Translations under genes and position numbers: made by a program
Part shown: positions 4,718-23,497 of the stretch, piece after piece
Numbering within the stretch: the first letter of the stretch is position 1
Layout of the letters: every line of letters begins with the position of its first letter
DNA from: Thermoplasmatota archaeon
GTDB taxonomy: Archaea; Thermoplasmatota; E2; DHVEG-1
Reading direction: 5' to 3'
Length of the DNA: 49,421 bases
NCBI GenBank assembly: GCA_016936135.1
Contig: JAFGPP010000117.1
Location: forward strand, 1 to 49,421
The notes under the pieces: model-generated
What the model was told of the DNA's origin: nothing
The model's database searches: none
Seen by the model: the letters and a program-made list of their open reading frames with translations, nothing else

Positions 4718-5329
4718 TATCTTCCCTCCTAGTAAAGTTATAATGCATATAATTAGTGATATATAAAGTTGTTTACAATGGGAGTTTTATATTGAACACT
4801 AACACTAGCTTCCTTTTTACATTCTATTTGTTTCATTTTATTTCACCAATTTAAAATAAAATTCCTTCCTAATAAAGGATAGTAAACCCCCACTTTTACC
4901 AGAAAAGTTTAAAGAGCTACAAGGGTTGGCATAAAGATAATCAATTAACTTTCTCCAGAAAGTAGGGTATTTTGCCACTTTTATTAAGATAATTTAAAAT
5001 TTCTTTAGTATTAGTTTTCTTTATAACACTATTAAAGAAAATCAATAATTAAATTAATGGCAAATCCTTGGGTAATTTGTGTGTAAATCCTGGGGTTATC
5101 ATAATGATAACATCATTACCCCATATGAGCTATCCTGGGGTTATAATTAAAACCAAAGGTTTTCTAGTGAAATTTATATTAATACATTTAATTTGTAAAT
5201 AATTACACAATTATCTAAATAAAAATTGAAAAAATCCTATTTTGAACCACATTTTTGCAATAAAGCTTTTATAATACAACGAGATTTATTTATTTGAAGG
5301 AATTGCTAAAAGATATTGGGGGAAATAAA

Positions 5330-6325
5330 ATGAAAAGAAAAATCATAGGTTTTTTAGTTTGTACGCTTTTAATTACGACAATATTGCCAATTACAGTTTC
5401 TTCAGATTATCCATCTAACAACATTATCTACGTTGATGATGACAACATAGATGGTCCGTGGGATGGTAGCCAAGAACATCCTTATCGCCTAATTGCAGAT
5501 GGTATTGATGCAACTGTTGATGGTGACACAGTCTATGTCTACAGCGGAACCTATTTTGAAAATTTTTCGATTAGGAAATCAATTTGTTTGGAGGGAGAAA
5601 ACAAGGAAACCACTATTATTGATGGTGGTAACCTGAAACAAGTTGATGTTATCGATATCATTTGTAGCAATGTCACTGTTAAGCGATTTTCGATTATAAA
5701 TGGAGACGATGGTATAGACGTATATAGTAAAGTTGATAATATTACAATTTCTGAGAATATAATAAAATATAATATAGGACAAGGTCTTGTTTTCTTCAAT
5801 TCAAATCGGAATACAATTACACACAATATAATTAGAAAAAATGGAGATATCAGTGAACCTTTTTCTGGGGGAATTTTATTCATAAATTCAAGTAATAACA
5901 ATATTAGTGGAAACATTGTTTCAGGTAATTTTAACTTTGGAATTTCGATTTTTCTTTTATATAATAGCATCGTTTCAGGAAATAGTATCACTTATAACCT
6001 TGGTACTGGCCTTGAGTTACAACATTCATATGATACTGTTATAGTTAGGAATAACTTTATAAAAAATGGTCAGAAGACGAGCGCTTTTTTGTTAGGAGAT
6101 TTAGCAGATAATGCAATGTTTCATTATTCAATGTTTCCCGAGAGACCATACAATAACAGTTGGGACAAAAATTTTTGGAATAGAGGCCGGATATTACCAA
6201 AACCGATATTTGGTATGTATTCATCTGCAACAAGGTTGCCTATTTTTTTGCCTTGGATTACTTTTGACTGGCATCCAACACTTAAACCTTATGACATTCA
6301 GGTTCCAGAAGGGACTTTTTTCTAA
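5330..6325 (+). CDS. Secreted right-handed parallel beta-helix repeat protein (NosD/PbH1-like)
   Basis: Track ORF starts at TTG 5294. The in-frame ATG at 5330 follows GGGGG and yields signal peptide MKRKIIGFLVCTLLITTILPITVSS. Repeated ~22-aa units (ITISENII, NTITHNII, NNISGNIV, SIVSGNSI) are typical of beta-helix repeats. Confidence 0.7.
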   Translation: MKRKIIGFLVCTLLITTILPITVSSDYPSNNIIYVDDDNIDGPWDGSQEHPYRLIADGIDATVDGDTVYVYSGTYFENFSIRKSICLEGENKETTIIDGGNLKQVDVIDIICSNVTVKRFSIINGDDGIDVYSKVDNITISENIIKYNIGQGLVFFNSNRNTITHNIIRKNGDISEPFSGGILFINSSNNNISGNIVSGNFNFGISIFLLYNSIVSGNSITYNLGTGLELQHSYDTVIVRNNFIKNGQKTSAFLLGDLADNAMFHYSMFPERPYNNSWDKNFWNRGRILPKPIFGMYSSATRLPIFLPWITFDWHPTLKPYDIQVPEGTFF

Positions 6326-6702
6326 TAACATAGTGTGATGTGTTGGGTGGCCAAGCCCCATAGTTAAAATAATAAATTAATTTATTATAGTAGTCCCCCC
6401 TCAAAGACTATACATATGAGGGTAATTTTCCCAGGAAATTTGAAATTGACGTCAATTAAAATTCATTTGAAAGTAGGAAAATCAATTAAAAAGTATAATA
6501 TTTTAGGGGAAAAACGACGCTTCTAACCACTATTAATATGATAGTTATGATGGTGGGTTTTTTGTCAGTCCCATGATGTCATTCCCCATATACGATAGAG
6601 CCATATGAGGGTTATGAGGGTGTTCAGTAATTTTTATTTCTTTGGAGAAAAAAATATATAATAAATCAAAAGTTATCCCAATATCCCTTATATTTGCTCA
6701 GT

Positions 6703-7971
6703 TCAAATTAGCTTTATTCCCCGATAAGCAAGTTGTTGTTTATCTTTTATCGTAGGTCTGTAATCAGTGACGGGGATAATATTTTGGCCGTGCATTGCTA
6801 TTCCAAATTGAACGACATTTATTGGATAGTCGTATCGGTATTTTATGCACCATTCTCTGCAATTTATATATAATTTTTTAGCAAATTCATAGTTGTTTAT
6901 TGATGGTTTGCAATTTGAGTTAAGCCACATCAAAAAGCCATCTTCCTTTATCTTTCCCTTCTGAAAAATTTCAATAACTTGGTATTTGTCCATCTGGTGA
7001 GATAACCTCCACTTGTTATTCCTCAGATTTGACACACCCTCCAGGGTATAGGCTAAAAATGCAGATTTATTCTCTTCTTTCGAGTATCGAGAAATTATAG
7101 TATCATCTGGTTCAAAGGTGTGAGGACATTCGATGAATTGCCAACGCCTATAGAATCCATCATCGGCAGTATCTTCATCAATTAAAGGAATTTTATTGCT
7201 GGAAAAAAACAATTTGGCGATACTTTCATATTCGAATGGATTCTGGTGCTTGAACTGCAATGTAACTGCATCGCCCCCAGTAAAATTTTTTATTCTTCCA
7301 TAATTTCGGCCTTTTACAACAGTTGGGACATCAGAAGAAATATTTCCTCGTTTTTGGTAAATTTGTGCATTGGTGAATTTCTCTCCCAATTGATTCAAAT
7401 TAAGATTTGAGATATTATCTTTTGTAAGCCAACGGCCCAATATGTTAAGAATGGTTGACTTGCCAGAATCATTTGGACCGTAAAGATAAATTAGTTTTTT
7501 TGTAACATAATGCGGGGCGAGAATATTGCCCACCGCATCTTGAAAAGTCTCGGAATTTGCCTTGCTCATTATTTGCTCCACAAACTTATGGATGGGCTCA
7601 CTGTCAATTGATTTATCATATGTAACGGGTATACGAAAGTCAACAAATTTACTCGGGGTGTGTTTTTCCAATTTCAATGTATCAAGATTAATTAACCCAT
7701 TATTTACGCAAATGTAATTGTGCTTTATATCTTGAAGATTTGTATATGTAGATCGTTCAATGTAACCCAGCACTTCGGCTACTCTTCCACCACTTGTCTC
7801 ATCACCAAGGTTCCTGTTAATTTCTTTTTTTAAAATTGGCACAGAATTTTTGTATTCATAAAATCCGTTTCTATAAATGTAGATTCTGCCCGAGTTCATG
7901 TCGGTTTTTATATGGTTCACCTTAAGTAACGCATCACCAAGAATTTTTGTGTTGAATGCCACTGTTATCAC
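6703..7971 (-). CDS. D5/P4-family SF3 helicase (phage/plasmid primase C-terminal NTPase)
   Basis: 422 aa with GTG start overlapping the upstream stop. Walker A is YLYGPNDSGKSTILNIL. D5_N-like N-terminal region; no obvious AEP or toprim primase motifs seen. Confidence 0.8.
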   Translation of the reverse strand: MITVAFNTKILGDALLKVNHIKTDMNSGRIYIYRNGFYEYKNSVPILKKEINRNLGDETSGGRVAEVLGYIERSTYTNLQDIKHNYICVNNGLINLDTLKLEKHTPSKFVDFRIPVTYDKSIDSEPIHKFVEQIMSKANSETFQDAVGNILAPHYVTKKLIYLYGPNDSGKSTILNILGRWLTKDNISNLNLNQLGEKFTNAQIYQKRGNISSDVPTVVKGRNYGRIKNFTGGDAVTLQFKHQNPFEYESIAKLFFSSNKIPLIDEDTADDGFYRRWQFIECPHTFEPDDTIISRYSKEENKSAFLAYTLEGVSNLRNNKWRLSHQMDKYQVIEIFQKGKIKEDGFLMWLNSNCKPSINNYEFAKKLYINCREWCIKYRYDYPINVVQFGIAMHGQNIIPVTDYRPTIKDKQQLAYRGIKLI

Positions 7972-8171
7972 CTCTGCTTCGGCACTGACTCACAAACACT
8001 GATTATTCTACTCAGGGCAATTACTTCATGGTTACTTTTCTTATCTAAAAAAAGACTATTATCGTTGATTTTCTTAAGTATTCCAAAAGATGCAAAATTA
8101 TCTGTCTTCACTACCTTACAATACTTGCCTAAAAAATATTTGATTTCTTCCTTTTTTATTCCTTCTGACAT
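7968..8171 (-). CDS. Small hypothetical protein of the element (possible SH3/Sm-like beta-barrel)
   Basis: 67 aa, translationally coupled to the helicase by a 4-nt overlap. The alternating pattern CKVVKTDNFASFGILKKINDNSLFL suggests a small barrel; no firm family assignment. Confidence 0.45.
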   Translation of the reverse strand: MSEGIKKEEIKYFLGKYCKVVKTDNFASFGILKKINDNSLFLDKKSNHEVIALSRIISVCESVPKQR

Positions 8172-8371
8172 CCGTCATATTCCATCGCCAGGTCATTTAG
8201 ACCAAAAGCCTCAAGCGCGTTGGCTCCACATCCCCATACCAATATGGATTAACATCCATTTAAAATTATGGTATTCCTTCTGTAAATCATTTAAAAAAGA
8301 CAGGGGAATAATTGTATTTAGAACAATCAAATAATTGCTACAGTGGATTTATCTAAAAATTTGCCAACAGG

Positions 8372-9649
8372 TTATAACTCCTCTTTGTAGGGTTTCTTCT
8401 TTACACTTTTTAAATCCAGTTTGTATTGATCAGTGGCTACTTTTAAAGCATCTTGATATCTTTTATTGAACTCTTCTTCATTTTCTAGTTCTGTTTCCTG
8501 AATGGTAATGGTCTTAGTGAAAAAGTCAACAAACTCATTAAACCTTTTATTGACACCATCTAGTTGTTCTTGTAGTGATTCTATTTGGTCTTGATTCATC
8601 GGGCGTTCATACACAAATAACTTATGGCAACCATTCAGGTATTCTTGTGCGTGTTCTTCATATGTCCATCTATCATAGGGTTCCTCATGTCCTAGCCACA
8701 ATTCCACCATGTCCCTTTTACACACATCTTTAAGTCTTGTGTTAAAAAACTTACGCAACGTGTAAAGTCTAACTACATACCAACCAGTCTTTGGGTCTTT
8801 TTCACCTAAGCCTGTTTCCCTAAGACAACGATTCCATTTATCTCTTATGGTTTGTGGCTCATAAGGAAAGATTCGTTTGATACTATCTGAGAATTCTTCC
8901 TGTGTGATTTTCTTTTTGTTTTTGTAGATTGACCATCCATCATCTAATTGTATGAAATCATATCCTAGTTTTTGAAATTTCTCTCTATCGAAATGTGACT
9001 TTTTACAAGCTTCAATAATTAGTTTGGTTCTGCGTTTTAACCATTCATGAACTGCTTTTGTTGCTTCAGGACTCATAAAGGTAAATCTATACGCCTTATC
9101 TTTTGCTACCTCTGCTCTTACATTAACTTTAACAGGATACTTGCTCCACTCGATATCATCAATAGTCATCCTGCATAGTTCTTCTTCCCTACAACCTGAT
9201 GAAGCCATCATTAAAAAGAAAGCCCTCTCTAAAGCATCAGCGTGTTGTAATATACCTTGTAATTCTGCTACGGTTGGTATTCTATCCCTAGCTGTTGTCT
9301 TGGGTAACTTACCTCTCCTTTGAATCTTTCGTATGTATGAAGGACTAACGACAACATCATGTTCATCAAGAAATAATCGCACTGATGCAAGATAGTTGGT
9401 TATTGTTGTTCCCTCCAAGTTTTTCTCAGTTGATAGATAAGAACGAAATTCTCGAAAGTCTTTTTTGATGTCTCTGGTTTTGTCCTTTATGTATGCCTCT
9501 GGTTTTATTTTTACAAACTTAAAAAATGTTTTAAGTCTGGAACTGTGATTTCTTCTTGTACCAATTGAGTCAAAATCCTTAATCCAATTTTCTATTAAAT
9601 CCATCATTCTACCCCTTATGATTTCAATATAATTTACCCCTGTTAACAA
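8372..9649 (-). CDS. Tyrosine recombinase/integrase with C-terminal coiled-coil extension
   Basis: 425 aa. SAM-like N-domain (TITNYLASVRLFLDEH), box I SSGCREEELCRM, box II-like YTLRKFFNTRL (Tyr where His is usual) and LGHEEPYDRWTYEEH. Roughly 70-aa E/K/Q-rich tail. Confidence 0.8.
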   Translation of the reverse strand: MLTGVNYIEIIRGRMMDLIENWIKDFDSIGTRRNHSSRLKTFFKFVKIKPEAYIKDKTRDIKKDFREFRSYLSTEKNLEGTTITNYLASVRLFLDEHDVVVSPSYIRKIQRRGKLPKTTARDRIPTVAELQGILQHADALERAFFLMMASSGCREEELCRMTIDDIEWSKYPVKVNVRAEVAKDKAYRFTFMSPEATKAVHEWLKRRTKLIIEACKKSHFDREKFQKLGYDFIQLDDGWSIYKNKKKITQEEFSDSIKRIFPYEPQTIRDKWNRCLRETGLGEKDPKTGWYVVRLYTLRKFFNTRLKDVCKRDMVELWLGHEEPYDRWTYEEHAQEYLNGCHKLFVYERPMNQDQIESLQEQLDGVNKRFNEFVDFFTKTITIQETELENEEEFNKRYQDALKVATDQYKLDLKSVKKKPYKEEL

Positions 9650-9826
9650 TTATAAATAGTGATATTTAAACTCTACTATTTTTATTTGAGAAATTTATTA
9701 TTGTTATTGTTTATTTCTTTACAATTTATCTTAAAAAAACCATTTTTTAAAAAAATAAACAAATTATAAATCAATTTAAAAACTATCAATGTGCACCATT
9801 ATAGAATTATCAACAATAATGGGTGC

Positions 9827-10177
9827 CTATTCGTTAAATTCTAATATTTTTTTCTTGATGACACTATACCAGCTATCTATACATGCATCAACTTTTTTCA
9901 TAGCAATGTTAATTTCAACTATGTTATACAAATAATAGTACCCACCTGTTTTTATTTTTTTTTGCTGTTTTTCGCATAGACCGCATAAAATTAGTTTTTG
10001 TAAGGAGCGGTAAACTGTACTTCTTTCCTTTTTTAATTTTTTCGACAGTTCAATTGTTGTAGATTTGCCTGTTTGTTTTAGCAATTTATACACTTCATTA
10101 TCTAAATTGTTTAGATCAAAAACACATTTTATTAAATCTTGACAAGTTATATTTTCAATTGATTTTGGAAACTTCAT
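9827..10177 (-). CDS. Winged-helix transcriptional regulator (TrmB/MarR-like)
   Basis: 116 aa. wHTH segment EVYKLLKQTGKSTTIELSKKLKKERSTVYRSLQKLILCGL. Divergent from the thioredoxin cluster. Confidence 0.65.
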   Translation of the reverse strand: MKFPKSIENITCQDLIKCVFDLNNLDNEVYKLLKQTGKSTTIELSKKLKKERSTVYRSLQKLILCGLCEKQQKKIKTGGYYYLYNIVEINIAMKKVDACIDSWYSVIKKKILEFNE

Positions 10178-10211
10178 TTCTCATAATGTTAAAATCAAAA
10201 CAGTATTTAAT

Positions 10212-10258
10212 GGTTGTGTAATTTATTCACACAAACGTTAAATACACAATAATGTATT
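10212..10258. promoter_or_regulatory. Two palindromes in the divergent promoter region (candidate operators)
   Basis: GGTTGTGT-N9-ACACAAAC at 10212-10236 and AATACA-N6-TGTATT at 10241-10258. Both lie between the regulator start (10177) and the thioredoxin start (10268). Confidence 0.3.
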
Positions 10259-10267
10259 ATAAACCTA

Positions 10268-10678
10268 ATGGATATCGAGCTTGAAAAAATTAAAAGAAAA
10301 AAAATGGAAGAAATATTACAAAATTATTCAAAAAGAGGTATAAATGTGGATAAAAATTTGCCAAAAACGCCAATAAAACTTACAGACGCAGATATTGATG
10401 AAAATATAAAAAAATACGACAAAATCGTTGTAGACTGTTGGGCACCGTGGTGCGGCCCTTGCAGGATGGTTGGACCAATAATCGATGAACTGGCAAAAGA
10501 AATGTCTGGCAAAATGGTCTTTGGAAAATTGAACGTCGATGAAAATCAAACCACATCTTCAAAATATGGCATTATGAGTATTCCTACTTTATTAGTATTC
10601 AAAAAAGGAGATTTAATCGATAAGATAATAGGTGCCTTACCAAAGGACATGTTAAAATCTAAATTATCTCAGTATTAG
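10268..10678 (+). CDS. Thioredoxin (CGPC) with N-terminal extension
   Basis: 136 aa with the canonical WAPWCGPCRM motif and SIPTLLVFKKG. Confidence 0.85.
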   Translation: MDIELEKIKRKKMEEILQNYSKRGINVDKNLPKTPIKLTDADIDENIKKYDKIVVDCWAPWCGPCRMVGPIIDELAKEMSGKMVFGKLNVDENQTTSSKYGIMSIPTLLVFKKGDLIDKIIGALPKDMLKSKLSQY

Positions 10679-10683
10679 AAACA

Positions 10684-11313
10684 TTGCTAAACCGATTAAT
10701 TTACTGTTTGGTGATCATAATTAAAAGAAAAAAAGTTCAACCAAAAAAAAATAATAGAATATGGCTGTATGTGATAATTATTATTGTTGTATTTGTGGTA
10801 GGTGCTTCATCTGCAATTTTTATTTTAAACCAACCCTTACAAAACGAGGGTGATGATTTTGTCTACACCTCTCTAGATGGCAGTATAAAAAGTTTAAGTG
10901 ATTACAGGGGCAAGGTTGTAATAGTTGACATGTGGGCAACTTGGTGTTCACCATGCGTATATGAAATGATGGAATTGTACAAATTATATAATAACTTCAG
11001 TAGTAATGATCTCGAAATTATTTCAGTAAATATATATGAGGGGGACAGCACTCAGAAAATTCAAGATTTTTTAGAAAAATTTGAAAATGATCACGGATAT
11101 AATCTAAACTGGGAGTTTGGTAGGGAAATTGATGATAATTTAGTCAAGTATATGAATGAGAGTGCAATACCCACTCTTTGCATATTTGACAGACAGGGAA
11201 ACCTTAAATTTCGACACGCTGGCCTAAGTTTCTACAATGAAATACCATCAAATTGGCCTTCAAACACACCCGAGCCGCCATTGCTGTTTCCAATAGTTGA
11301 AGAGTTAATATAA
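10684..11313 (+). CDS. Membrane-anchored TlpA/ResA-like thiol:disulfide oxidoreductase (CSPC)
   Basis: 209 aa. TTG start as in the track; the start is uncertain. One N-terminal TM (IWLYVIIIIVVFVVGASSAIFIL), WATWCSPC motif, redoxin-like fold. Confidence 0.75.
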   Translation: MLNRLIYCLVIIIKRKKVQPKKNNRIWLYVIIIIVVFVVGASSAIFILNQPLQNEGDDFVYTSLDGSIKSLSDYRGKVVIVDMWATWCSPCVYEMMELYKLYNNFSSNDLEIISVNIYEGDSTQKIQDFLEKFENDHGYNLNWEFGREIDDNLVKYMNESAIPTLCIFDRQGNLKFRHAGLSFYNEIPSNWPSNTPEPPLLFPIVEELI

Positions 11314-11339
11314 AGAAAAATTAATAATGGGGAGATAAA

Positions 11340-11828
11340 GTGAAAAGAATCTATAAAAAAATATCAACCATAACTTTAGTAGTAATATTGATGTGCAGCC
11401 TAAGTGTTGGAATTGTTTCTGCACTTATTCCAACAATAAATATAGATCCTGAATCACCTACACCTAAATCTACAGTAAAATTTACTTCAGAAGTGGAAGA
11501 TCAAAATGTTATAGAGGTGCGTTTGCTAATACAAGAGTGTAATGCCAACACCGGAATTTGTCATGAACCAAGAGAGAACCTTTCAATGAGCAAAATCAGT
11601 GAAGGGGTATACGAAACTTCTGCAACATTGAAATTTGAAGATACAACATATATACAGTACAGTTTAAATGTGAAAACTGGCGAAGGATGGGTGCAATATC
11701 TGGAGGGAACTAAAAAGGATTTGAATCTTCAAAATAATAACGGCAATAACACACCTGGATTTGAGTTTATATTAGCTATTTTAGCAACAATACTTATAAT
11801 ACCAATTGTTTATAAACGTAAAAGATAG
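11340..11828 (+). CDS. Surface protein with signal peptide and PGF-CTERM sorting signal
   Basis: 162 aa with GTG start after GGGGAG. C-terminus is NNTPGFEFILAILATILIIPIVYKRKR (PGF, then TM helix, then basic tail). Beta-rich body with a single Cys pair (QECNANTGICHEP). Confidence 0.65.
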   Translation: MKRIYKKISTITLVVILMCSLSVGIVSALIPTINIDPESPTPKSTVKFTSEVEDQNVIEVRLLIQECNANTGICHEPRENLSMSKISEGVYETSATLKFEDTTYIQYSLNVKTGEGWVQYLEGTKKDLNLQNNNGNNTPGFEFILAILATILIIPIVYKRKR

Positions 11829-11830
11829 GA

Positions 11831-12655
11831 ATGAAATTTCAGGTCAAGCGGTTACTATCACAAATTCTAATCTTTTTTTCTGCAAATCTAGGTGCATTTG
11901 GACTGAAAACCGGATTCTGCTACCCTTTTTTTTACTGTCATGCATGTCCTGCTTCAACATCCGCATGTCCACTTAGAGCTTTAGAACAAAGTGTTTATTC
12001 AAGAAGTTTTACCTGGTATTTCTTTGTATATCCATTATTGATCTTGGGTTTTTTTGGTGTTTTAACAGGCAGAGCAGTATGTGGGTGGGCATGCCCAATT
12101 GGACTGCTTCAAAGAGCTACTGGAAAAGTTGCCAGGAGGTTTAAAAAATATAAATTTTTAAACGAAAGAACAACTAAAAAAATTGATAGATATCTAAGAT
12201 ATGCAAAATATTTTGTTCTAATCGGTTTAGTTATTTTTACTTCCTGGTTGATAGGAATTATGTTTACAGATATTTGTCCAATAGGTTTTTTAACGGGTAC
12301 CATTCCAACTTTATTATTATATCCAGGTAAATTTGTACCAAACACTTTTTTCGGGATTGCATTAATTATCTTTCTTTTATTTCTTATTTTGATATTTACA
12401 GTAGAAAGAGGTTGGTGTCGTTACTTTTGCCCGATTGGTGCCCTACTTGCACCTTTCAATAAAATTAGTTATTTACATGTTTCCAGGGTTAAAGAAGAAA
12501 CATTTGAAAAGGAATGTATTAAGTGTGATGCCTGTTCAAAAATTTGCCCTATGGGAATTGATGTTACCAAGTTGTTCAGAGATCCAGAGTGTATTCTATG
12601 CGGTAAGTGCGTTACAGCATGTCCTAAAAATCTTATCGAATTTAAGAGGAAATAA
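11831..12655 (+). CDS. NapH/MauN/CcoG-type integral-membrane polyferredoxin
   Basis: 274 aa. CX3CP motifs CGWACP and CRYFCP, an extra CHACP, several TM helices and a C-terminal 2x[4Fe-4S] region (CIKCDACSKICP, CILCGKCVTACP). Confidence 0.75.
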   Translation: MKFQVKRLLSQILIFFSANLGAFGLKTGFCYPFFYCHACPASTSACPLRALEQSVYSRSFTWYFFVYPLLILGFFGVLTGRAVCGWACPIGLLQRATGKVARRFKKYKFLNERTTKKIDRYLRYAKYFVLIGLVIFTSWLIGIMFTDICPIGFLTGTIPTLLLYPGKFVPNTFFGIALIIFLLFLILIFTVERGWCRYFCPIGALLAPFNKISYLHVSRVKEETFEKECIKCDACSKICPMGIDVTKLFRDPECILCGKCVTACPKNLIEFKRK

Positions 12656-13285
12656 ATGAAAAAATTCTTTGCTACTCAAATAACTTTAATCCTAATATTC
12701 GCCGGTGGATTATCTGGCATGTTTATATCTACTGATGTATACGAAAATGTTCAGTCAAGAATCGTAAATGTTCTTTGTCTTAGTTGTCTAAAACTTGAAC
12801 CAAAAACTATTGTCGAATTCACATTTGATACAGCAAATGGGCAATCTCATCCAGAGTTTGTCATTGAAAACCTAACAATTGGTCCAATATTTTTACATTT
12901 CAGCGAAGATGTTTGCCATGGATGCGAAGTTATGCACCCCGTCATCGAAAAGTTATTCAACATTTCATTTGAAAAAACTGATTCAGTTTATGAAATTAAA
13001 GAAATTCAAAACACTTCGGTTGTCTACATTTACATAAACATCGATCATACAACACAAGATTTGCGAAATTCTTTATACATATACGACAAGGACAATGTTC
13101 AAGGCCTACCAATGTTTTCAATAATTACCCTGGGCTATGATAACGGAATTGTAAAGCCATATTATACTTCTATTTATGGAACACTAAAGGATACAGACCA
13201 AGAGAGATTGGATTTTATTTCTTCAATTTTGCAAGAAGGAATAGAAATGTTCAAGCAAAATATTGACGGATTTTTACAACCTTAA
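12656..13285 (+). CDS. Membrane-anchored thioredoxin-like protein (CHGC) of unknown family
   Basis: 209 aa. Start ATG overlaps the upstream stop (TAAATG). N-terminal TM helix, CLSC just after the TM, and a Trx-like context IFLHFSEDVCHGCEVMHP. Confidence 0.5.
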   Translation: MKKFFATQITLILIFAGGLSGMFISTDVYENVQSRIVNVLCLSCLKLEPKTIVEFTFDTANGQSHPEFVIENLTIGPIFLHFSEDVCHGCEVMHPVIEKLFNISFEKTDSVYEIKEIQNTSVVYIYINIDHTTQDLRNSLYIYDKDNVQGLPMFSIITLGYDNGIVKPYYTSIYGTLKDTDQERLDFISSILQEGIEMFKQNIDGFLQP

Positions 13286-13358
13286 TACCCCATATTAATT
13301 AAAACAAGTTGAGATTGTATTTCCACTTTTCAGACTTGATTTAAATCATAAAAAGGCA

Positions 13359-13568
13359 TCAACCACTAGATGTTTTTTTCATTTCTTCTTCGGCCATCTC
13401 GTCAAGCTTTTTATCCACACCTAGCTCCTTTGCAATTTTTGACATTTCATCGAGCATTTGGTCCCAAATAACTTCTTGTTCCAGGGCATAATACCACATA
13501 TCCAATTTTGTTGAACCATCTGCCTTTTTGAAATCTTCAAGGAATGCCTTTTTATCTTCTTCGTTCAT
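13359..13568 (-). CDS. Small acidic hypothetical protein
   Basis: 69 aa, highly charged and helical-looking. No family recognised. Confidence 0.4.
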   Translation of the reverse strand: MNEEDKKAFLEDFKKADGSTKLDMWYYALEQEVIWDQMLDEMSKIAKELGVDKKLDEMAEEEMKKTSSG

Positions 13569-13683
13569 ATGTTATCACGATTTTAAATTAATTTTTCCTT
13601 AAATCTATAAATTGGCAATTTAGGACAGTATGTAATGAAGCATTAATAGAGTTTTTGAATTTAGTCTAATAAATCAATTTTGT

Positions 13684-14316
13684 TCAACTTCTTACAAAGG
13701 CATTATATCTTTTTTCATCGCCAATAGTCGTTGATGGTCCGTGACCGGTATATACAATTGTTTCATCTGACAAAGTATACAGCTTTGATTTAATCGAATT
13801 AGATAATTGTTCAAATGATCCTCCATGCAGATCGGCTCTTCCTATGCTGCCTTGAAACAGGACATCACCAACAAAAACAATGCTATTGTGTAATAAACAC
13901 AAACTTCCCTGTGAATGCCCAGGAGTGTGCAATACATCGAACTGGTATTCACCAACTGAAATAATGTCGCCTTCGTCTATGCATCGATCTGGTTTTAAAG
14001 CACCCCCAAAACCTAAACGATGATACCTATCGCTTTTAGGTTCTTTATCGGGAAAATCATTCTTGTGGGCGAGAAAATCTGCACCTGTTTTTTTCCTTAG
14101 TTTTTCTACTCCATCAACATGATCAAAATGACCATGTGTAGCAACTATTAATTTGACTTTTAACCCTAAATTTTTTATCTTTTTTACAATCAGTTCTACG
14201 TTATCTCCGGGATCAATTATTAGAGCTTCAAGCGTTTTTTCATCCCAAACAATGTAACAATTCGACATCAGAGGTCCCACGACCAATTTTTCTACATTTA
14301 AACCAACATTTTCCAT
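13684..14316 (-). CDS. MBL-fold metallo-hydrolase (glyoxalase II-like)
   Basis: 210 aa. THGHFDHV metal motif, HTPGHSQGS and GDVLFQGSIGRAD. Confidence 0.85.
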   Translation of the reverse strand: MENVGLNVEKLVVGPLMSNCYIVWDEKTLEALIIDPGDNVELIVKKIKNLGLKVKLIVATHGHFDHVDGVEKLRKKTGADFLAHKNDFPDKEPKSDRYHRLGFGGALKPDRCIDEGDIISVGEYQFDVLHTPGHSQGSLCLLHNSIVFVGDVLFQGSIGRADLHGGSFEQLSNSIKSKLYTLSDETIVYTGHGPSTTIGDEKRYNAFVRS

Positions 14317-14498
14317 TGTTTTACCTCAGGTGTTACTTAGCATGATTGCTTATATTTTCAGATCTAACATAATTTTAAACACATATTGCCATTTAAAATA
14401 TATGATAAAAAATTAATTTGATTAACCAGTGATTTAGATTATTTTCAGACATTTACATATACAAGATCTGCCATTATAGACGTCCAAAGAGGCAATAA

Positions 14499-15761
14499 AT
14501 GTTTGTGGAGATTCCTTACGGTCAAGGAATAAAAAAAATCAAAATAGATGAACCTTGTGATGTTTTACTTCCAAACAAGGTTGAAATCGGGGATGAAAAT
14601 CTTACAATAAAAACTGCGCTAGATAATCCCGTCTCATCAATATCATTTGAAGAGTTTGTTAAACAATCAGATAAGTTACTTATCGTTGTAAACGATGCAA
14701 CTAGGCCCACGCCTACTGCAAAAATTCTTGATACTTTACATCCTATAATTTCCAATATCAAAGATTTTAGAATTATTGTTGCAACTGGATCTCACAAACC
14801 ACCCACCCAAGAAGAATTCAAATTTATTTTTGGAGAATACTACAACCTTTACAAGGATAAAATCGTTGTTCACGATGCGAAAAATTCCTCAATGAAATTT
14901 CATGGAATAACACCGCTTGGAACAGAAGTGGCTTTTAATGAAATAATTGATAGATATCAAAATATCATAACAATAAATAGTGTGGAGCCGCATTATTTTG
15001 CAGGTTATACCGGTGGAAGGAAATCCTTCTTGCCAGGTCTAGCTTCTTATAAAACCATAGAGATGAACCACAAATTTGCTATGGATGACAGGGCATGCGG
15101 TTTGGCACTTAAAGCAAATCCTGTACATGAAGACATGATTGATTCGATAAGACTTCTTTCCGAAATAAATGTTTTTTCCATTCAAATAGTCTTAACTCCA
15201 GAAGGAAGAATTTTTAAAGTAATTACCGGTGATTTGGAAAAATCCTTTTTAGAGGCAGTTGAATATGCAAACGAAGTCTTTTGCACCTCATTAAAAAAGA
15301 AAGGCAACATCGTAATTACGGTCGCCCCTCACCCTATGGATAAGAATCTATACCAATCTCAAAAAGCATTGGAAAATGGAAAACTTGCCTTAAAAAAGAA
15401 CGGGATTATTATTTTAGTATCAAAATGTCCCGGAGGCGTTGGCCAACAAGCTTTTGTCGATCTTTTATCTAAGGCAAACAGGCCTGAAGAAGTTTTAGAA
15501 TTTTTAAAAAACGAATATAAGCTTGGATATCACAAGGCTGGAAAAATTGCAGAATTGGCAACATGGGCAGATATTTGGGCTGTAACGGATTTAGATTCAA
15601 CCGTGCTGCAAAAAGCCTTTATCAGTTCGCGTAAAGGAATTCAAGCAGCTGTTGATGATTCTATTAAAATAATTAAAAAGAAAGGCGAGAAACCCGAAAT
15701 AATTATCATACCCTATGGCAGTTTAACGGTCCCATTTTGTCAAAAAGGACAATTAATCTAA
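14499..15761 (+). CDS. larA: LarA-family (DUF2088) nickel-pincer-dependent 2-hydroxyacid racemase/epimerase homologue
   Basis: 420 aa. Motifs NDATRPTP, ATGSHKP and EPHYFAGYTGGRKS match LarA cofactor-binding and catalytic regions as I recall them. Confidence 0.75.
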   Translation: MFVEIPYGQGIKKIKIDEPCDVLLPNKVEIGDENLTIKTALDNPVSSISFEEFVKQSDKLLIVVNDATRPTPTAKILDTLHPIISNIKDFRIIVATGSHKPPTQEEFKFIFGEYYNLYKDKIVVHDAKNSSMKFHGITPLGTEVAFNEIIDRYQNIITINSVEPHYFAGYTGGRKSFLPGLASYKTIEMNHKFAMDDRACGLALKANPVHEDMIDSIRLLSEINVFSIQIVLTPEGRIFKVITGDLEKSFLEAVEYANEVFCTSLKKKGNIVITVAPHPMDKNLYQSQKALENGKLALKKNGIIILVSKCPGGVGQQAFVDLLSKANRPEEVLEFLKNEYKLGYHKAGKIAELATWADIWAVTDLDSTVLQKAFISSRKGIQAAVDDSIKIIKKKGEKPEIIIIPYGSLTVPFCQKGQLI

Positions 15762-15827
15762 AGATAATATCGTCTTTTATTGAGAAGTAAGGAAATATTT
15801 ATTAAAACTCTTAATGTTGTATTTCTG

Positions 15828-16187
15828 ATGTCTGCAAGAATTAATGATAAACCAATATTAGTAAAAAAAGATGACGGCCTAATCGACAAAAGTCGACAAG
15901 GTAAGAAGTATCAACTTAAATTAAAGTCAGATAAGATGGAGGCAATTATTGCAGAGCTTGATCCACACACAGAATCACGATGGTTTAAACATTCTGGTCA
16001 AGAAATTCATATAGTATTGAACGGTGAGATGGAATACGCAGTTGGGGACAATTTTTTCAAGCTGTGTGAAGGAGATATTTTGTGGCACGATTCTTCCAAA
16101 CCTCATCGGGCAAAAAACAACAGTGACAAAAAAGTAAAATACATAACAATTGGAACCCCACCGACTTTTATGATGGATGATATATAG
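15828..16187 (+). CDS. Cupin domain protein
   Basis: Track ORF starts at TTG 15780; the in-frame ATG at 15828 is more likely. Cupin motifs HSGQEIHIVLNGE and PHRAKN. Confidence 0.65.
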   Translation: MSARINDKPILVKKDDGLIDKSRQGKKYQLKLKSDKMEAIIAELDPHTESRWFKHSGQEIHIVLNGEMEYAVGDNFFKLCEGDILWHDSSKPHRAKNNSDKKVKYITIGTPPTFMMDDI

Positions 16188-16188
16188 A

Positions 16189-16683
16189 TCAACCAGATAA
16201 CTCATCGGTCAAATTACTAATCTCTTTATTTATTTTCTTAAAAATTTTTTCTAAGTAGACTGGAATATTTTTCTCCAATTCTGATGAAATAGTGTTTCCA
16301 AATGAAGTATCTCCTGGATGAATTCCAATAATAAAAATCTTATCGGGGACTTGTCCAAGTTTCTTTGAAAGTTCAATAATATTTAGGAAATCGGCGCAAT
16401 GCGTAGACTGGGTAATAAATGGCTTAACACTTTTGAGGTTTTTAGCATCAAATATTTCAATTTCTCCTATCTTTTTATTGAAATTCACCGCATCAATTAT
16501 AAAAACTAAATCAAATTTGGTTATTAGATGTAACAGGTTCATCCCACCTGTACCACCATCTATAATTTCAATACCACCAGATAAAATATTTTTTTTGAGT
16601 TTTATATAGTCTAAAATTTTTATACCAATGCCGTCATCTTTTCTAAAAGGATTTCCAAGGCCAATTACAGCTACTCTTTTCAT
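16189..16683 (-). CDS. [NiFe] hydrogenase maturation endopeptidase
   Basis: 164 aa. N-terminal VIGLGNPFRKDDGIGIKI is typical of the HyaD/HycI/FrhD family. Last gene of the hydrogenase operon. Confidence 0.85.
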   Translation of the reverse strand: MKRVAVIGLGNPFRKDDGIGIKILDYIKLKKNILSGGIEIIDGGTGGMNLLHLITKFDLVFIIDAVNFNKKIGEIEIFDAKNLKSVKPFITQSTHCADFLNIIELSKKLGQVPDKIFIIGIHPGDTSFGNTISSELEKNIPVYLEKIFKKINKEISNLTDELSG

Positions 16684-16687
16684 AAAT

Positions 16688-18001
16688 TTAAGAATCTACA
16701 AATTTGACATCCAGATAATGTGTACTGCAGGAAATACAGGGGTCATATGCTCTTACCAGCATTTCTAAGTTAAGTTCGATTTCTTTTTGAGGTTTGTCCA
16801 TAATCTGAGGTACTAATTTTTCCATGTCTTTTTGAATATTTGCATGATTTTGATTTGTAGGAATTACACAGTTTGCCTCAACACATTTCTGATTTTTTAT
16901 TGAATAGTCGTGAACAAGTATCCCTCTCGGAACCTCGACTATACCTACCCCGCGCCCGGATGTTTTCTTAGCTTTTACAGGTCTTTCAGGTTTTACACCA
17001 TTATTTGTAAGTTTGTCAATCAATAAAATAGAATCTTCAATGTTATGAACAAATTCTACTAGCTGTGCAACATTATTCATAAATGGATTAAAATTAATTG
17101 ATTTTAGATTAAACATCTTGGCAACTTGTTTTGCAATTGGGTGAAGCTGTGAACTATTGAGGTTAAATCTCGCTAATGCACCGACCATATATGATTCACG
17201 GTTATGTTTTGCATATTTTGCAGTGGATTGTGGAACAACGTATTCTTGCATTACAGATTCATATTTTTTTGGATCTGAGTGTATTCCTGTATCCGTTGAG
17301 GCAATTTTTCCATCGTAGAAAGCATATTCATCATCGGATTTTAATGCAATATACTCTGTTTCTCTTGAAAAATTTGGGAAATTATTAGCAACTGTACTAA
17401 CAACATTTGCAACATCCTGTGAAGTCTTGATAGCTAAGTGTAAATCCTCTTTTAATTTGATAAGCTGTTTCTTGGTTGGTAATAGAGAGAAACCTCCAAC
17501 TACCAATCTAATCGGATGGGTTGTACGTCCACAAATAAGATCAGACATTTCGTTTGAAAGTCTGTGTAATTTTACGATTTTTAATAAAGTATCTTGGTGC
17601 TTACTGCCAACAAGTGGAAATACGCTACCAACTCCAAATAGATCCGGTGCAGCAAGGTAACCAACATGCAAAATATGACTTTGCATATTTTCACCATTAA
17701 TCGCAAGCCTTCTAAACAAAGCAGATTGTTTTGAAATTTCAACGTTCAGTGCATCCTCAGTTGCTTTTAAACTTGCAAGAGAGTGTCCTATAGAACATAT
17801 GCCACATATACGGGAGGTAATCGGGCGAAGTTCATTATAATCTCTTCCTTTCAGCATTGCCTCAAAAAACCGTGGTGCCTCCGGAACCTGCCACTGAAGT
17901 TTTTCAATTGTGCCATTTTTCACATCCAAGACAATATTTCCATGACCCTCAACCCTTGTTATATGGTGGAGACTAACAGATATGTTTTTGCTCATTTGCA
18001 A
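16688..18001 (-). CDS. hydA: [NiFe] hydrogenase large (alpha) subunit, group 3b-like
   Basis: 437 aa. N-terminal RICGICSIGH and C-terminal DPCISCSTH Ni-Fe ligand motifs, followed by a short cleavable tail (YLDVKFVDS). Confidence 0.9.
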   Translation of the reverse strand: MQMSKNISVSLHHITRVEGHGNIVLDVKNGTIEKLQWQVPEAPRFFEAMLKGRDYNELRPITSRICGICSIGHSLASLKATEDALNVEISKQSALFRRLAINGENMQSHILHVGYLAAPDLFGVGSVFPLVGSKHQDTLLKIVKLHRLSNEMSDLICGRTTHPIRLVVGGFSLLPTKKQLIKLKEDLHLAIKTSQDVANVVSTVANNFPNFSRETEYIALKSDDEYAFYDGKIASTDTGIHSDPKKYESVMQEYVVPQSTAKYAKHNRESYMVGALARFNLNSSQLHPIAKQVAKMFNLKSINFNPFMNNVAQLVEFVHNIEDSILLIDKLTNNGVKPERPVKAKKTSGRGVGIVEVPRGILVHDYSIKNQKCVEANCVIPTNQNHANIQKDMEKLVPQIMDKPQKEIELNLEMLVRAYDPCISCSTHYLDVKFVDS

Positions 18002-18744
18002 ACCTCCTTACCGTAATTATAGATATTACACCGTCTCTTCATTTCTTCATAGTCAAGATTATATCTCTCTAAAATGTCATTTATGCATTCGACCTCTGGT
18101 TTCTTTAAAATCCCGCGACATCCATCACATGGGCTACCATTTGTTGGACATATGGAATTACAACCTGCCCGTGTAATTGGTCCAAGACAAAACTTACCAA
18201 GCTCAAAAAGACAGATGTTTTCATTCTTTTTACATTCCACACACACAGGATAATTTGGTATTTCCGGGTTTTTTCCCATTGCAATTGAGGTAATTACTTT
18301 CTTAAATTCATCTCGATTTATTGGACATCCATGAATATTGTAATCAACTTTTACAACTTCATCGACTGCTTTTGTTTGAAATACATCAAAAAAATCGTTT
18401 CCTTTGAGATTATAATTTCCATAAACTTCTTTTTTAACCTCAGACGGAGTCCATTGATTTCTTATCTTGTTTATTCCCCCAATTGTAGCACATGCGCCAA
18501 GTGCAACTAGGATTTTTGCATTTTCACGTATCTCTTTTAGTCGGCCTTCGTCAATTGGTCGCATGATTGAACCTTCAATTATTGCAATATCATAATCATC
18601 GGAATGTTCCTTCATTACCTCCCTAAAAGAAACAACGTCCACAATATTAATGAGATCAAGGATCTCTTCCTCCAAATCTGCTATCTGCAGTTGACAACCT
18701 TCACAACTAGCAAAGTCAAAAAAGGCAACACGAGGTTTTTTCAT
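17992..18744 (-). CDS. hydD: [NiFe] hydrogenase small (delta) subunit
   Basis: 250 aa. FASCEGCQ proximal-cluster motif plus a further Cys-rich FeS region. Overlaps both neighbouring genes. Confidence 0.85.
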   Translation of the reverse strand: MKKPRVAFFDFASCEGCQLQIADLEEEILDLINIVDVVSFREVMKEHSDDYDIAIIEGSIMRPIDEGRLKEIRENAKILVALGACATIGGINKIRNQWTPSEVKKEVYGNYNLKGNDFFDVFQTKAVDEVVKVDYNIHGCPINRDEFKKVITSIAMGKNPEIPNYPVCVECKKNENICLFELGKFCLGPITRAGCNSICPTNGSPCDGCRGILKKPEVECINDILERYNLDYEEMKRRCNIYNYGKEVCK

Positions 18745-22652: not shown

Positions 22653-23228
22653 ATGCCAGTTAAAGACATCATTGAAATTGTTTTTCATGGCCGAGGTGGA
22701 CAGGGTTCAGTCACGGCAGCTAATCTCCTTGTATCAGCTGCATTAGCGGATGGCAATAAGGGCGTCCAAGCTTTTCCTGTCTTTGGAGCCGAAAGACGAG
22801 GAGCACCTGTAAGAGCATTTGCTCGCATATCTGAAAATGAAATTAACCTGAGAAGTGAAATTTATTATCCCGATATTGTAATTGTTCAAGATGAAAGCAT
22901 TATTGGACTTGTTGATATTACCAAAGGACTAAAAGAAAACGGTAGAATCCTAATTAATACAACAAAAAAACCAAGTGATTTTGATTTTTCTGATAAATAT
23001 GGAGTTGCAACAGTTGATGCCACTGGAATTGCCATAAAACATGATATTCTTGTTGGTGGAATACCTGTCGTAAACACTCCAATTCTGGGCGCAGTTCCAA
23101 AGATTTTGGATAAAGTGACCCTAAAATCCATCCAAGCATCTGTAAAAAACAAATGGAAGGGAGAACTTGCGGAAAAAAATGTTAGAGCAACGCAAGACGC
23201 CTTTGGTGAGGTAGAGGTGAACTTTTGA
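22653..23228 (+). CDS. porG: Pyruvate/2-oxoacid:ferredoxin oxidoreductase gamma subunit
   Basis: 191 aa with FHGRGGQGSVTAANLL and FGAERRGAPV. First gene in gamma-delta-alpha-beta order. Confidence 0.85.
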   Translation: MPVKDIIEIVFHGRGGQGSVTAANLLVSAALADGNKGVQAFPVFGAERRGAPVRAFARISENEINLRSEIYYPDIVIVQDESIIGLVDITKGLKENGRILINTTKKPSDFDFSDKYGVATVDATGIAIKHDILVGGIPVVNTPILGAVPKILDKVTLKSIQASVKNKWKGELAEKNVRATQDAFGEVEVNF

Positions 23229-23497
23229 AAAAATACGAGGTAGTTACAAGTATCTCCTATCCAAAAAAGGGAGCAATGGGAAAAACTGGTAGCTGGAGGG
23301 TTTTTAGACCAATTTTTGATAAGGCAAAATGCGTTAAATGCCTTCGATGCTGGATCTTTTGCCCGGAAGGCACAATTAAGCGAAAAAAGGATGATTCAAT
23401 TGAAATCGATTATGATTATTGTAAGGGGTGCGGGATTTGTGCCAATGTTTGTAAAGTTAAGGCAATTACTATGGAACGGGAGGCGAAGAAAAAATGA
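23225..23497 (+). CDS. porD: Pyruvate/2-oxoacid:ferredoxin oxidoreductase delta subunit (2x[4Fe-4S])
   Basis: 90 aa with TTG start overlapping the upstream TGA. CVKCLRCWIFCP and CKGCGICANVCK. Confidence 0.85.
   Translation: MKKYEVVTSISYPKKGAMGKTGSWRVFRPIFDKAKCVKCLRCWIFCPEGTIKRKKDDSIEIDYDYCKGCGICANVCKVKAITMEREAKKK

Follow-up and report, generated by a model that had tools for sequence, protein, structure and literature searches.

A conserved gene cluster of Thermoplasmatota archaea as a candidate DsbD-like thiol relay built around a NapH-type polyferredoxin

A 49,421-nt stretch of DNA from a Thermoplasmatota archaeon (contig JAFGPP010000117.1; taken at its full length, this is the window referred to below) contains five co-oriented genes, here g1–g5, for a cytoplasmic thioredoxin, a membrane-anchored TlpA/ResA-like protein, a surface protein, a NapH-type polyferredoxin and a membrane-anchored thioredoxin-like protein respectively, with a divergent regulator gene upstream. 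Our favoured reading, which we hold to be somewhat probable, is that the cluster is a DsbD-like reductive thiol relay of the archaeal envelope in which the NapH-type Fe-S protein g4 stands in place of DsbD-beta/CcdA. The original prediction, made from the letters of the window, had already proposed the polyferredoxin as a substitute for CcdA/DsbD, and the part of that proposal which the present analysis supports is a functional tie of g4 to g5 and g3, since these genes show near-universal synteny, occur as natural fusions and encode cysteines predicted to face outwards. Gene content, motif invariance, synteny, fusions, the fold of g5 and the co-occurrence of regulator and operator come directly from the computational analysis; from these we infer the direction of electron flow, the donor, the acceptors or substrates and the topology.

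All six open reading frames (ORFs) were found at the positions given earlier, with g1–g5 on the same strand (+) and separated by only 5, 26, 2 and 0 nt, and the cysteine motifs and the promoter palindrome that had been described were both present (Table 1).

A five-gene block with a naturally fused core

Homologues of g4 are numerous: 547 were found among the word-sharing candidates, the best 120 of them 65–91% identical, and with one genome per GTDB species 461 relatives were obtained, the best 80 all from Thermoplasmatota, besides hundreds more matches in metagenomes. The named homologues of g4 and g5 belong to Thermoplasmatota metagenome-assembled genomes (MAGs), some of which carry the label 'Euryarchaeota' or 'Methanobacteriota'; Thermoplasmatales archaeon SM1-50 and ex4572_165 are examples. 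The taxon sampling consists of MAGs, and the host lineages are Marine Benthic Group D/Thermoprofundales-type archaea. The g5 family is small, with 96 representatives, several of them multidomain, recovered by a profile search of 1.84e9 proteins.

The order g1-g2-g3-g4-g5, in a single orientation, was retained in 63 of the 66 species-level loci with enough flank, next to genes that vary by locus (NiFe hydrogenase, ApbE plus Rnf, DUF7286 and others). Because the ordered block recurs in this many species, its conservation is far beyond chance, and the synteny that had been proposed as a check is borne out. The three exceptional loci retain g4 and g5 or g3, g4 and g5, which points to these genes as the core.

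The same core recurs in fusions, whose architectures we read with Pfam and with our own profiles. P0293 is a g4–g5 fusion; in P0317, P0320 and loci L088–L092 and L106, a single chain of ~950 amino acids (aa) comprises g4, g5, a second thioredoxin (Omp28-like), an Ig domain, a g3-like domain and a transmembrane (TM) segment; P0287, P0289 and P0295 are g5–Ig–g3 fusions; and in L104 and L105 a separate g4 gene overlaps the start of the gene for a g5–Ig–g3 fusion by 8 nt. A g3 profile matched the C-terminal domains of the fusion proteins with E values of 4e-13 to 1e-10. Kept in every architecture are C36, C46 and C149 of g4, both of its CX3CP and both of its 4Fe-4S motifs, and both CXXC motifs of g5. 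Both the C-terminal end of g4 and the N-terminal end of g5 are predicted to lie in the cytoplasm, and the order found in the fusions (ferredoxin domain, g5 TM segment, thioredoxin domain) is consistent with these topologies.

The genes around the fused and separate versions differ. Fused versions adjoin very large CARDB/Ig/TSP3 surface proteins: in L089–L092, secreted proteins of 750–1200 aa with CARDB, Ig-like and TSP3 repeats lie directly upstream of, and co-oriented with, the g4–g5–g3 fusion gene, and in L088 an 890-aa ORF is similarly placed. These proteins are candidates for clients of the relay. Encoded 1–5 kb downstream of the operon in L010 (7500–8951) and 42 other loci is a surface protein of ~483 aa that combines a CxxC thioredoxin domain with an Omp28-like region and a Big_7 Ig domain; it is absent from the window, and a similar thioredoxin module lies inside the ~950-aa fusions. 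This protein could itself belong to the relay or be one of its clients. In two MAGs the system is carried on two contigs, as two complete copies in UBA33 (L033, L036) and as one complete and one contig-truncated copy (g3–g5) in JL_UM_3 (L008, L079), which could reflect paralogy or mixed-strain bins.

Table 1. Features of the cluster, with positions in the window
Feature	Position	Strand	Characteristics
Regulator	9827-10177	-	divergent, single-domain winged helix-turn-helix (wHTH), TrmB/Lrs14/Sta1-like, conserved Cys
Operator palindrome (predicted)	10203-10245	.	shared divergent promoter
g1, thioredoxin, cytoplasmic	10268-10678	+	WCGPC
g2, TlpA/ResA-like, membrane-anchored	10684-11313	+	WCSPC
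g3, surface protein	11340-11828	+	signal peptide, Cys pair, sorting tail
g4, NapH-type polyferredoxin	11831-12655	+	two Fer4_5 stretches
g5, membrane-anchored thioredoxin-like	12656-13285	+	CLSC + CHGC

The polyferredoxin g4 is of NapH type, with additional cysteines predicted to face outwards

A Pfam scan placed two Fer4_5 stretches in g4, whose architecture is that of NapH/MauN, with four TM helices, two CX3CP motifs (C84/C88 and C196/C200) and two C-terminal 4Fe-4S motifs (CX2CX2CX3CP). The NapH/CcoG-type label given to it earlier holds for the architecture, but by curated cutoffs g4 is an orthologue of neither: it scored 94.5 bits against 213.05 (TIGR02163) and 82.4 against 234 (NF007013) with the NapH/MauN models, and 44 against 316.7 with the CcoG/RdxA/FixG model (TIGR02745). 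Seventeen cysteines are invariant among 25 homologues of 66–74% identity. They include the CX3CP and 4Fe-4S cysteines already listed in the original prediction and five that it had not listed, C30, C36, C39, C46 and C149.

E. coli NapH aligned to residues 69–268 of g4 (E 1e-14), leaving the N-terminal cysteine motif (C30, C36, C39 and C46) with no counterpart there. NapH has been described as a protein of four TM helices whose Fe-S clusters lie on the cytoplasmic side (PMC9012536). Across g4 orthologues the loop formed by residues 79–127 contains a mean of 11.9 Lys plus Arg, and that formed by residues 147–172 a mean of 0.6, so that the former is predicted to be cytoplasmic and the latter external. 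The loop charges and the alignment with E. coli NapH agree, which supports the predicted topology, in which C30, C36, C39 and C46 in loop 1 (GFCYPFFYCxxCPxxxxxCP) and C149 in loop 2 (DICP) would face outwards, and both CX3CP motifs and the C-terminal 2x[4Fe-4S] domain inwards. The topology check suggested earlier thus came out in favour of an external site, with the five conserved g4 cysteines and all four cysteines of g5 predicted outside the membrane.

Homology to a subunit of an unrelated, characterised complex, which would have told against the original prediction, was not apparent: g4 stays below the curated cutoffs, no nap, nos or cco genes lie nearby, and the window and the 86 related loci read contain neither napG/napA nor mau genes. 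Roles for g4 in cytochrome c maturation or in nitrate, nitrous oxide or organohalide respiration were rejected, as the partner genes occur in no neighbourhood. A link to ApbE/Rnf was dropped as well, because ApbE is adjacent only in L003 and L004, where it precedes rnf genes, and is not conserved. Four bacterial loci with NapH-like proteins (L093–L096; 26–28% identity) lack thioredoxin-like neighbours and were uninformative.

With CcoG/RdxA/FixG, g4 shares the Fer4_5 membrane core and two [4Fe-4S] clusters, and one alternative is accordingly a copper or metal module, in which Cu(II), or some other metal or metalloid, would be reduced by g4 and then bound or chaperoned at the surface by g3, g5 and g2 in the manner of Sco, PCuAC or TlpA. 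Thioredoxin folds of the TlpA and Sco types deliver copper in bacteria, and g3 has a conserved Met together with its Cys pair. CcoG, which also carries a periplasmic Ig-like domain, is a demonstrated cupric reductase thought to supply Cu(I) to cytoplasmic CopZ and P1B-type export ATPases (PMC7558416); such a mechanism implies reduction in the cytoplasm, for which outer-loop cysteines are not needed. Besides falling far below the CcoG cutoff, g4 has no cco genes (or a cbb3 oxidase), copper ATPase, CopZ or other copper-trafficking genes near it in the window and the neighbourhoods read, the cluster being rich in thiol-disulfide proteins instead. The motif of g2 is CxPC and not the CxxxC…H of Sco (SCO1-SenC matched only with E 0.055), and the conservation profiles of g3 and g5 contain no His/Met clusters. 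We consider a metal module very unlikely.

The extracytoplasmic and cytoplasmic thiol proteins

No Pfam or NCBIfam family matched g5, which begins with a short basic N-terminus and a single N-in TM anchor, continues with a membrane-proximal CXXC in VLCLSCLKLEP (C41, C44) and ends with a domain containing a second CXXC (C87, C90); all four cysteines were invariant in alignments of 30 and of 84 sequences. In an AlphaFold2 (AF2) model (predicted local distance difference test score, pLDDT, 83.1; predicted template-modelling score, pTM, 0.72) a strand at 78–83 is followed by a helix at 88–101 with the C87/C90 motif at its N-terminus, and a G-x-PMF loop is placed like the cis-Pro loop of thioredoxins. 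The top matches of the model in a Foldseek search of the PDB were thioredoxins or other thioredoxin-fold proteins, at a modest level (best E 5e-3, TM-score relative to the target ~0.5). Hence g5 models as a thioredoxin fold with canonical CXXC placement. As in DsbD-gamma, this domain follows the membrane module directly at its C-terminal side in the g4–g5 and ~950-aa fusions, and we propose that g5 is a DsbD-gamma-like acceptor.

An alignment of 28 g3 orthologues delineates a signal peptide, a secreted domain of ~100 aa whose E-C-x(3-9)-C hairpin (C67, C74) is invariant, an N/G/D-rich linker and a tail composed of TPGFE, a TM segment and RKR. The Cys pair is kept in 99% of 79 orthologues. The earlier description of g3 as a PGF-CTERM protein is correct as to a sorting tail and not as to the Pfam model: PF18204 remained below its cutoff (14.7 against 18.8) and TIGR04126 matched in 4 of the 28 orthologues, whereas the NCBIfam sorting model NF045529 ('Heimdall-CTERM') scored 28.4 against 24 and passed in 27 of them. 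Both this model (27/28) and 'Loki-CTERM' (19/28) pass on Thermoplasmatota proteins (window positions 11745–11828 and 27 orthologues), and because these score above cutoff, the two names are unreliable as taxon markers. An Asgard origin suggested by the 'Heimdall-CTERM' match was rejected, since all 80 best genome matches and all named homologues are from Thermoplasmatota.

The secreted domain of g3 matched no domain family, and a profile search of the PDB returned nothing even at E 10. The protein evolves fast, with only 8 word-sharing homologues, yet its profile recognises g3 in 79 loci. We found that the hairpin QEC…GICY aligns with the active site of DsbD-alpha, YQGCADAGFCYPP; with the g3 profile, QECNANTGICH is placed on YQGCADAGFCY, the alpha active site of E. 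coli DsbD. Local hhalign comparison with a DsbD_N alignment (seven sequences, plasmid-borne homologues) gave a probability of 45–58%, P ~1e-4 and a score of 28.8 over ~42 columns, compared to 9.9±1.8 (maximum 17.8) for 300 column shuffles and 15.9 for the reversed template. The Pfam DsbD_N model (PF11412) matched weakly in 3 of the 28 orthologues, at E 0.14 or weaker. Homology over the full domain was rejected, the global hhalign probability being 11%, and we claim a likeness of the active site alone; this resemblance is suggestive, the statistics not being conclusive. The original prediction had g3 as a substrate or metal-binding partner. Since some lineages have it fused to the relay, and since its hairpin resembles that of DsbD-alpha, we revise this role, and consider g3 more likely to be a relay component, that is, a DsbD-alpha-like adaptor.

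For g1, the thioredoxin model TIGR01068 gave 119.5 bits, above its cutoff of 96.8, and the Pfam Thioredoxin model an E value of 2e-28; there is no hydrophobic or TM segment, a conserved charged N-terminal extension of ~35 aa is present, and the motif DCWAPWCGPC includes a third conserved cysteine, C57, which like C62 and C65 is kept in 99% of 70 orthologues. The Pfam models AhpC-TSA (56.1 bits) and Redoxin (55.3 bits) both matched g2 over their cutoffs, and the NCBIfam equivalog cutoffs were not reached (ResA, 74 against 170; TlpA, 66 against 230). With a Redoxin/AhpC-TSA fold, a WCxPC motif (C88 and C91, kept in 97% of 72 orthologues) and a single N-terminal TM anchor (30–48) after a KRKK…KK stretch, g2 has the traits of TlpA/ResA/CcmG-type proteins, and its catalytic domain is predicted to lie outside.

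The nature of these partners bears on whether electrons would flow outwards, as in our favoured reading, or inwards. In an oxidative machine for quinone-poor anaerobes, analogous to DsbB or VKOR, g5 and g3 would oxidise exported proteins and be re-oxidised by g4, with electrons passing inwards via Fe-S centres to a cytoplasmic acceptor. DsbB has two periplasmic Cys pairs, and g4, with its CXXC in loop 1 and its Cys in loop 2 on the outer side, is reminiscent of this pattern; the CXXC dipeptides of g5 and its relatives (CHGC, CAGC, CSAC) are neither thioredoxin-like nor TlpA-like. Quinones and cytochromes, moreover, go unmentioned in a genomic study of Thermoprofundales. The partners are, however, of reductant type (a WCGPC thioredoxin, a WCxPC TlpA/ResA-like protein and a DsbD-alpha-like hairpin), the cytoplasmic thioredoxin of the operon has no place in an oxidase pathway, and by established thermodynamics it would be uphill for thiols, at about −120 to −270 mV, to pass electrons on to low-potential Fe-S centres or ferredoxin. 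An oxidative function is therefore unlikely in our estimation.

A TrmB-type regulator and a conserved palindrome

The product of the divergent gene matched Pfam TrmB (PF01978) with 48.7 bits against a cutoff of 25.6, and the NCBIfam Sta1 and Lrs14 models below cutoff. Among 27 orthologues C12 is conserved in 100%, C68 in 96% and C99 in 93%. OxsR of Haloferax volcanii, a single-wHTH TrmB protein, has been shown by experiment to be a thiol-based regulator; it relies on a conserved N-terminal Cys, and its binding sites lie near operons for thiol relays (PMC9426492). The regulator shares with it the single wHTH TrmB domain, the size (~120 aa), the conserved N-terminal Cys and the proximity to thiol-relay genes, so that it is probably a thiol-sensing protein of OxsR type (arCOG02242-like). 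The two differ in the DNA motif, which is CG-rich for OxsR.

The palindrome in the shared promoter has 17-nt arms (10203–10219 and 10229–10245) that are 88% complementary, around a core, GGTTGTG-N11-CACAAAC, that is flanked on both sides by A/T-rich TATA-like sequence. This motif occurs once in the 49-kb window, at 10212. It stands 51–67 nt upstream of g1 in each of the 26 loci where a regulator was detected, is also present in two where none was, and occurs in none of the ~40 g1-containing loci that lack the regulator. The palindrome is accordingly a predicted operator for the regulator.

Loci without regulator and palindrome have, on the same strand upstream of g1, a gene for an 86-aa protein with C-x3-C-x2-C (FCLEQCAKC), as in L005 (4207–4467) and 45 others; no Pfam model matched it. 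The same operon therefore has two alternative heads, one consisting of the regulator and palindrome and the other of the 86-aa CxxC protein.

An OxsR-type regulator with its palindrome suggests a stress regulon, and the operon might then be no more than a set of co-regulated antioxidant enzymes, each reduced in some other way (for instance by a CcdA encoded elsewhere), with g4 as an unrelated protein such as a ferredoxin-linked membrane oxidoreductase and no transmembrane relay at all. It fits such an arrangement that g1 and g2 are unlinked to the fused versions and that the search for CcdA covered the window and the related flanks. The repeated fusion of g4, g5 and g3, or their encoding by overlapping genes, is unexpected for independent enzymes, and such an arrangement would not account for the invariant outer-loop cysteines of g4 or for the membrane-proximal CXXC in g5. 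We judge this explanation to be improbable.

A proposed route for reducing equivalents

Envelope thioredoxin-fold proteins are known to be fed by DsbD or CcdA. None of the window ORFs scanned belongs to the DsbD/CcdA, VKOR or DsbB families, and DsbD/CcdA and VKOR are likewise missing from the flanks (~5–6 kb) of ~95 related loci, so that the earlier statement that the cluster lacks CcdA, DsbD and VKOR holds over this range. In particular, the DsbD-beta/CcdA domain (PF02683) had no Pfam match in any cluster protein or window ORF, and a phmmer search with E. coli DsbD-beta combined with a motif scan, which is a weak test, found none in the window or the ~95 related loci.

In the reductive relay that we favour, a cytoplasmic low-potential donor would reduce g4, either ferredoxin at its 2x[4Fe-4S] domain or g1 at its CX3CP cysteines, or both. 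Electrons would cross the membrane via membrane-embedded Cys/Fe-S sites of g4 to the outward-facing C36 (with C39), C46 and C149, which would reduce C41/C44 of g5; these would in turn reduce C87/C90, and g5 the C67/C74 hairpin of g3. From g3, reducing equivalents might pass to the TlpA-like g2 and to other surface thiol proteins, and expression would be set by the thiol-sensing OxsR-type regulator acting on the conserved palindrome. The role of such a system would be to keep envelope cysteines reduced, or to repair them, in a strictly anaerobic ferredoxin-based heterotroph. Partners of reductant type are found in addition to g1 (WCGPC) and g2 (WCxPC) in the 86-aa CxxC protein (46 loci) and the thioredoxin–Omp28–Ig surface protein (43 loci). 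NapH-like proteins of bacteria have earlier been proposed as modular transmembrane conduits to extracytosolic, flavinylated redox proteins (PMC8238504).

As to the membrane step itself, we tentatively suggest that g4 and g5 form a ferredoxin-driven Fe-S transmembrane disulfide reductase that ends in outward cysteines and possibly resembles ferredoxin:thioredoxin reductase (FTR), with a surface-anchored counterpart of DsbD-alpha completing the relay; this more specific proposal is possible, but we hold it with less confidence than a reductive relay as such. At the outer face of g4 the cysteines may work as dithiol/disulfide, as in DsbB, VKOR and DsbD, or the 'C…CP' cysteines may ligate a cluster beside the g5 CXXC in an FTR-like manner. 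The dithiol/disulfide variant agrees better with the loss of C39 in one lineage, and it also avoids cluster assembly outside the cell. FTR and the heterodisulfide reductase HdrB offer a possible chemistry for converting one-electron transfers from Fe-S centres into the reduction of a disulfide, should the 'C…CP' cysteines of g4 indeed ligate a cluster by the CXXC of g5. They differ in being soluble cytoplasmic enzymes, and we liken them to g4 by chemistry, not by sequence.

Several points weigh against a relay of this kind. It is read from sequence and models, and to our knowledge no system has been demonstrated in which one-electron Fe-S centres are coupled through a membrane to the two-electron chemistry of disulfides. 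It would be difficult for a polytopic protein inserted by Sec to acquire an Fe-S cluster on its outer side, and of the outer cysteines of g4, besides the loss of C39, C30 is found only in the five-gene type. An AF2 model of g4 from the alignment of 25 sequences of 66–74% identity is unusable for the geometry of the outer cysteines (pLDDT 49, pTM 0.36), and by sequence no solved structure of a NapH-type membrane domain is detectable, a PDB profile search with g4 matching only the ferredoxin domain. The likeness of g3 to DsbD-alpha is local (~42 columns, probability at most 58%), and the hairpin occupies the middle of the domain in g3 but is close to the C-terminal end of DsbD-alpha. Fused versions have neither g1 nor g2 nearby, which makes these two accessory genes, and there co-occurrence gives no support to g1 as the donor. 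Finally, the negative for CcdA covers the window and the related flanks, and CcdA could be encoded elsewhere in the genomes.

Genes around the cluster in the window

Positions 16189–20678 and 22653–25559 of the window encode a NiFe hydrogenase module, made up of a HycI protease, the large and small subunits and a 645-aa subunit with Fer4_22 and FAD/NAD domains, and, beyond it, subunits of pyruvate:ferredoxin oxidoreductase; both enzymes are low-potential electron sources or sinks near the cluster. A secreted S15 peptidase with PKD domains and a hemerythrin are also encoded, and the host has the gene profile of an anaerobic ferredoxin-based heterotroph. In these archaea quinol would be an unlikely donor for g4.

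Both in the window and in related loci, the system has genes for secreted peptidases and for large CARDB/Ig/PKD surface proteins as its neighbours, and the same relay might thus serve catabolism, as an outward reductase for disulfides of detrital proteins, cystine or polysulfide that provides an electron sink or aids substrate access. The two copies in some genomes, such as UBA33, would suit this use. No gene for a terminal reductase or for sulfur metabolism accompanies the cluster in the neighbourhoods read, and a thiol-sensing regulator is better suited to maintenance or repair. We give a catabolic role little chance of being the right one.

The operon is bordered by variable DNA on both sides. 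Just past the 3' end of the regulator gene, a 4.9-kb segment (4768–9650) is absent from the closest relative, L007, which has 85–86% nt identity on either side of it. The segment encodes a tyrosine integrase (8372–9649, −), a D5_N/DUF5906 primase-helicase (6703–7971, −), a small ORF (7968–8171, −) and a NosD/beta-helix protein (5294–6325, +), and imperfect direct repeats of ~16 nt, A(T)TAGTGATAT(A/T)TAAA, are located at 4750–4766 and 9655–9670; neither junction was found to hold a tRNA gene. The segment resembles a small integrated element. Downstream of g5, positions 13286–16187 contain a 69-aa ORF and genes for an MBL-fold hydrolase, a LarA-like lactate racemase homologue and a cupin. This region does not align with L007, and in L001 the NiFe hydrogenase genes directly follow g5, so that it is a second variable segment bordering the operon.

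Near the start of the window, an 888-aa protein (1278–3944) combines an ADP-forming acyl-CoA synthetase (CoA_binding, Succ_CoA_lig and ATP-grasp_5) with a C-terminal GNAT acetyltransferase, and adjoins a histone-deacetylase-family gene (165–1196). The two may be a protein acetylation/deacetylation pair.

Comparison with known systems and significance

The closest parallel in design is DsbD of E. coli (with ScsB and CcdA). Common to both are a cytoplasmic thioredoxin, a membrane module, a thioredoxin-fold CXXC domain (gamma in DsbD, g5 here), a Cys-hairpin domain (alpha, tentatively g3) and a TlpA/CcmG-type acceptor (g2), and in some lineages here all modules are joined in one polypeptide, as in DsbD. 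The cluster differs from DsbD in having no DsbD-beta/CcdA and a NapH-type membrane module with Fe-S motifs in its stead, in the extra membrane-proximal CXXC of g5, and in the order of modules, which is membrane–gamma–alpha instead of alpha–membrane–gamma, with g3 likened to alpha by local alignment.

In the NapH-like/ApbE flavinylation systems (Méheust et al. 2021, PMC8238504; NapH, NosR/NosH, PceC), as in g4, a four-TM PF12801 core that bears two CX3CP motifs, together with a 2x[4Fe-4S] domain on the cytoplasmic side, forms a proposed modular conduit feeding an extracytosolic redox partner. The partner here is of thioredoxin-fold or Cys-hairpin type and not flavin mononucleotide (FMN)-binding, there being no FMN_bind domain in g1–g5 by Pfam scan and no ApbE gene in the block, and g4 also has its five conserved outer-loop cysteines, of which the four in loop 1 set it apart from E. 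coli NapH.

Surface-anchored thioredoxin-fold reductants supplied from the cytoplasm of monoderm cells are known from CcdA–Etrx1/2–MsrAB2 of Streptococcus pneumoniae and from CcdA–ResA and CcdA–StoA of Bacillus, where they are reportedly used for extracellular oxidative-stress resistance or for maturation (PMC3914529, PMC2665060). The membrane step in these systems is CcdA, and neither an Msr nor a cytochrome c maturation gene is linked to the cluster described here. The original prediction did not recognise this gene combination as a described system, and our literature searches likewise turned up no account in which a module of NapH type is paired with thioredoxin-type and DsbD-alpha-like proteins.

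Should electrons really pass across the membrane from Fe-S centres to disulfides, the mechanism itself would be new. It would be a third way of coupling cytoplasm and envelope thiols, beside the all-cysteine DsbD/CcdA and the quinone-linked DsbB/VKOR, and would extend the design principle of DsbD to a non-homologous membrane engine. NapH-type Fe-S scaffolds would then feed thiol-disulfide proteins too, which would give a testable function to many orphan 'NapH/polyferredoxin' genes. For such studies, the natural fusions are ready-made constructs for biochemical and structural work, and the regulator with its operator is an unusually clean pair for the study of redox sensing in archaea. As to how strictly anaerobic, quinone-poor archaea supply electrons to their surface cysteines, or remove electrons from them, the cluster, which occurs in Thermoprofundales-like Thermoplasmatota, among the most abundant archaea of marine sediments, provides a concrete and widely conserved candidate.

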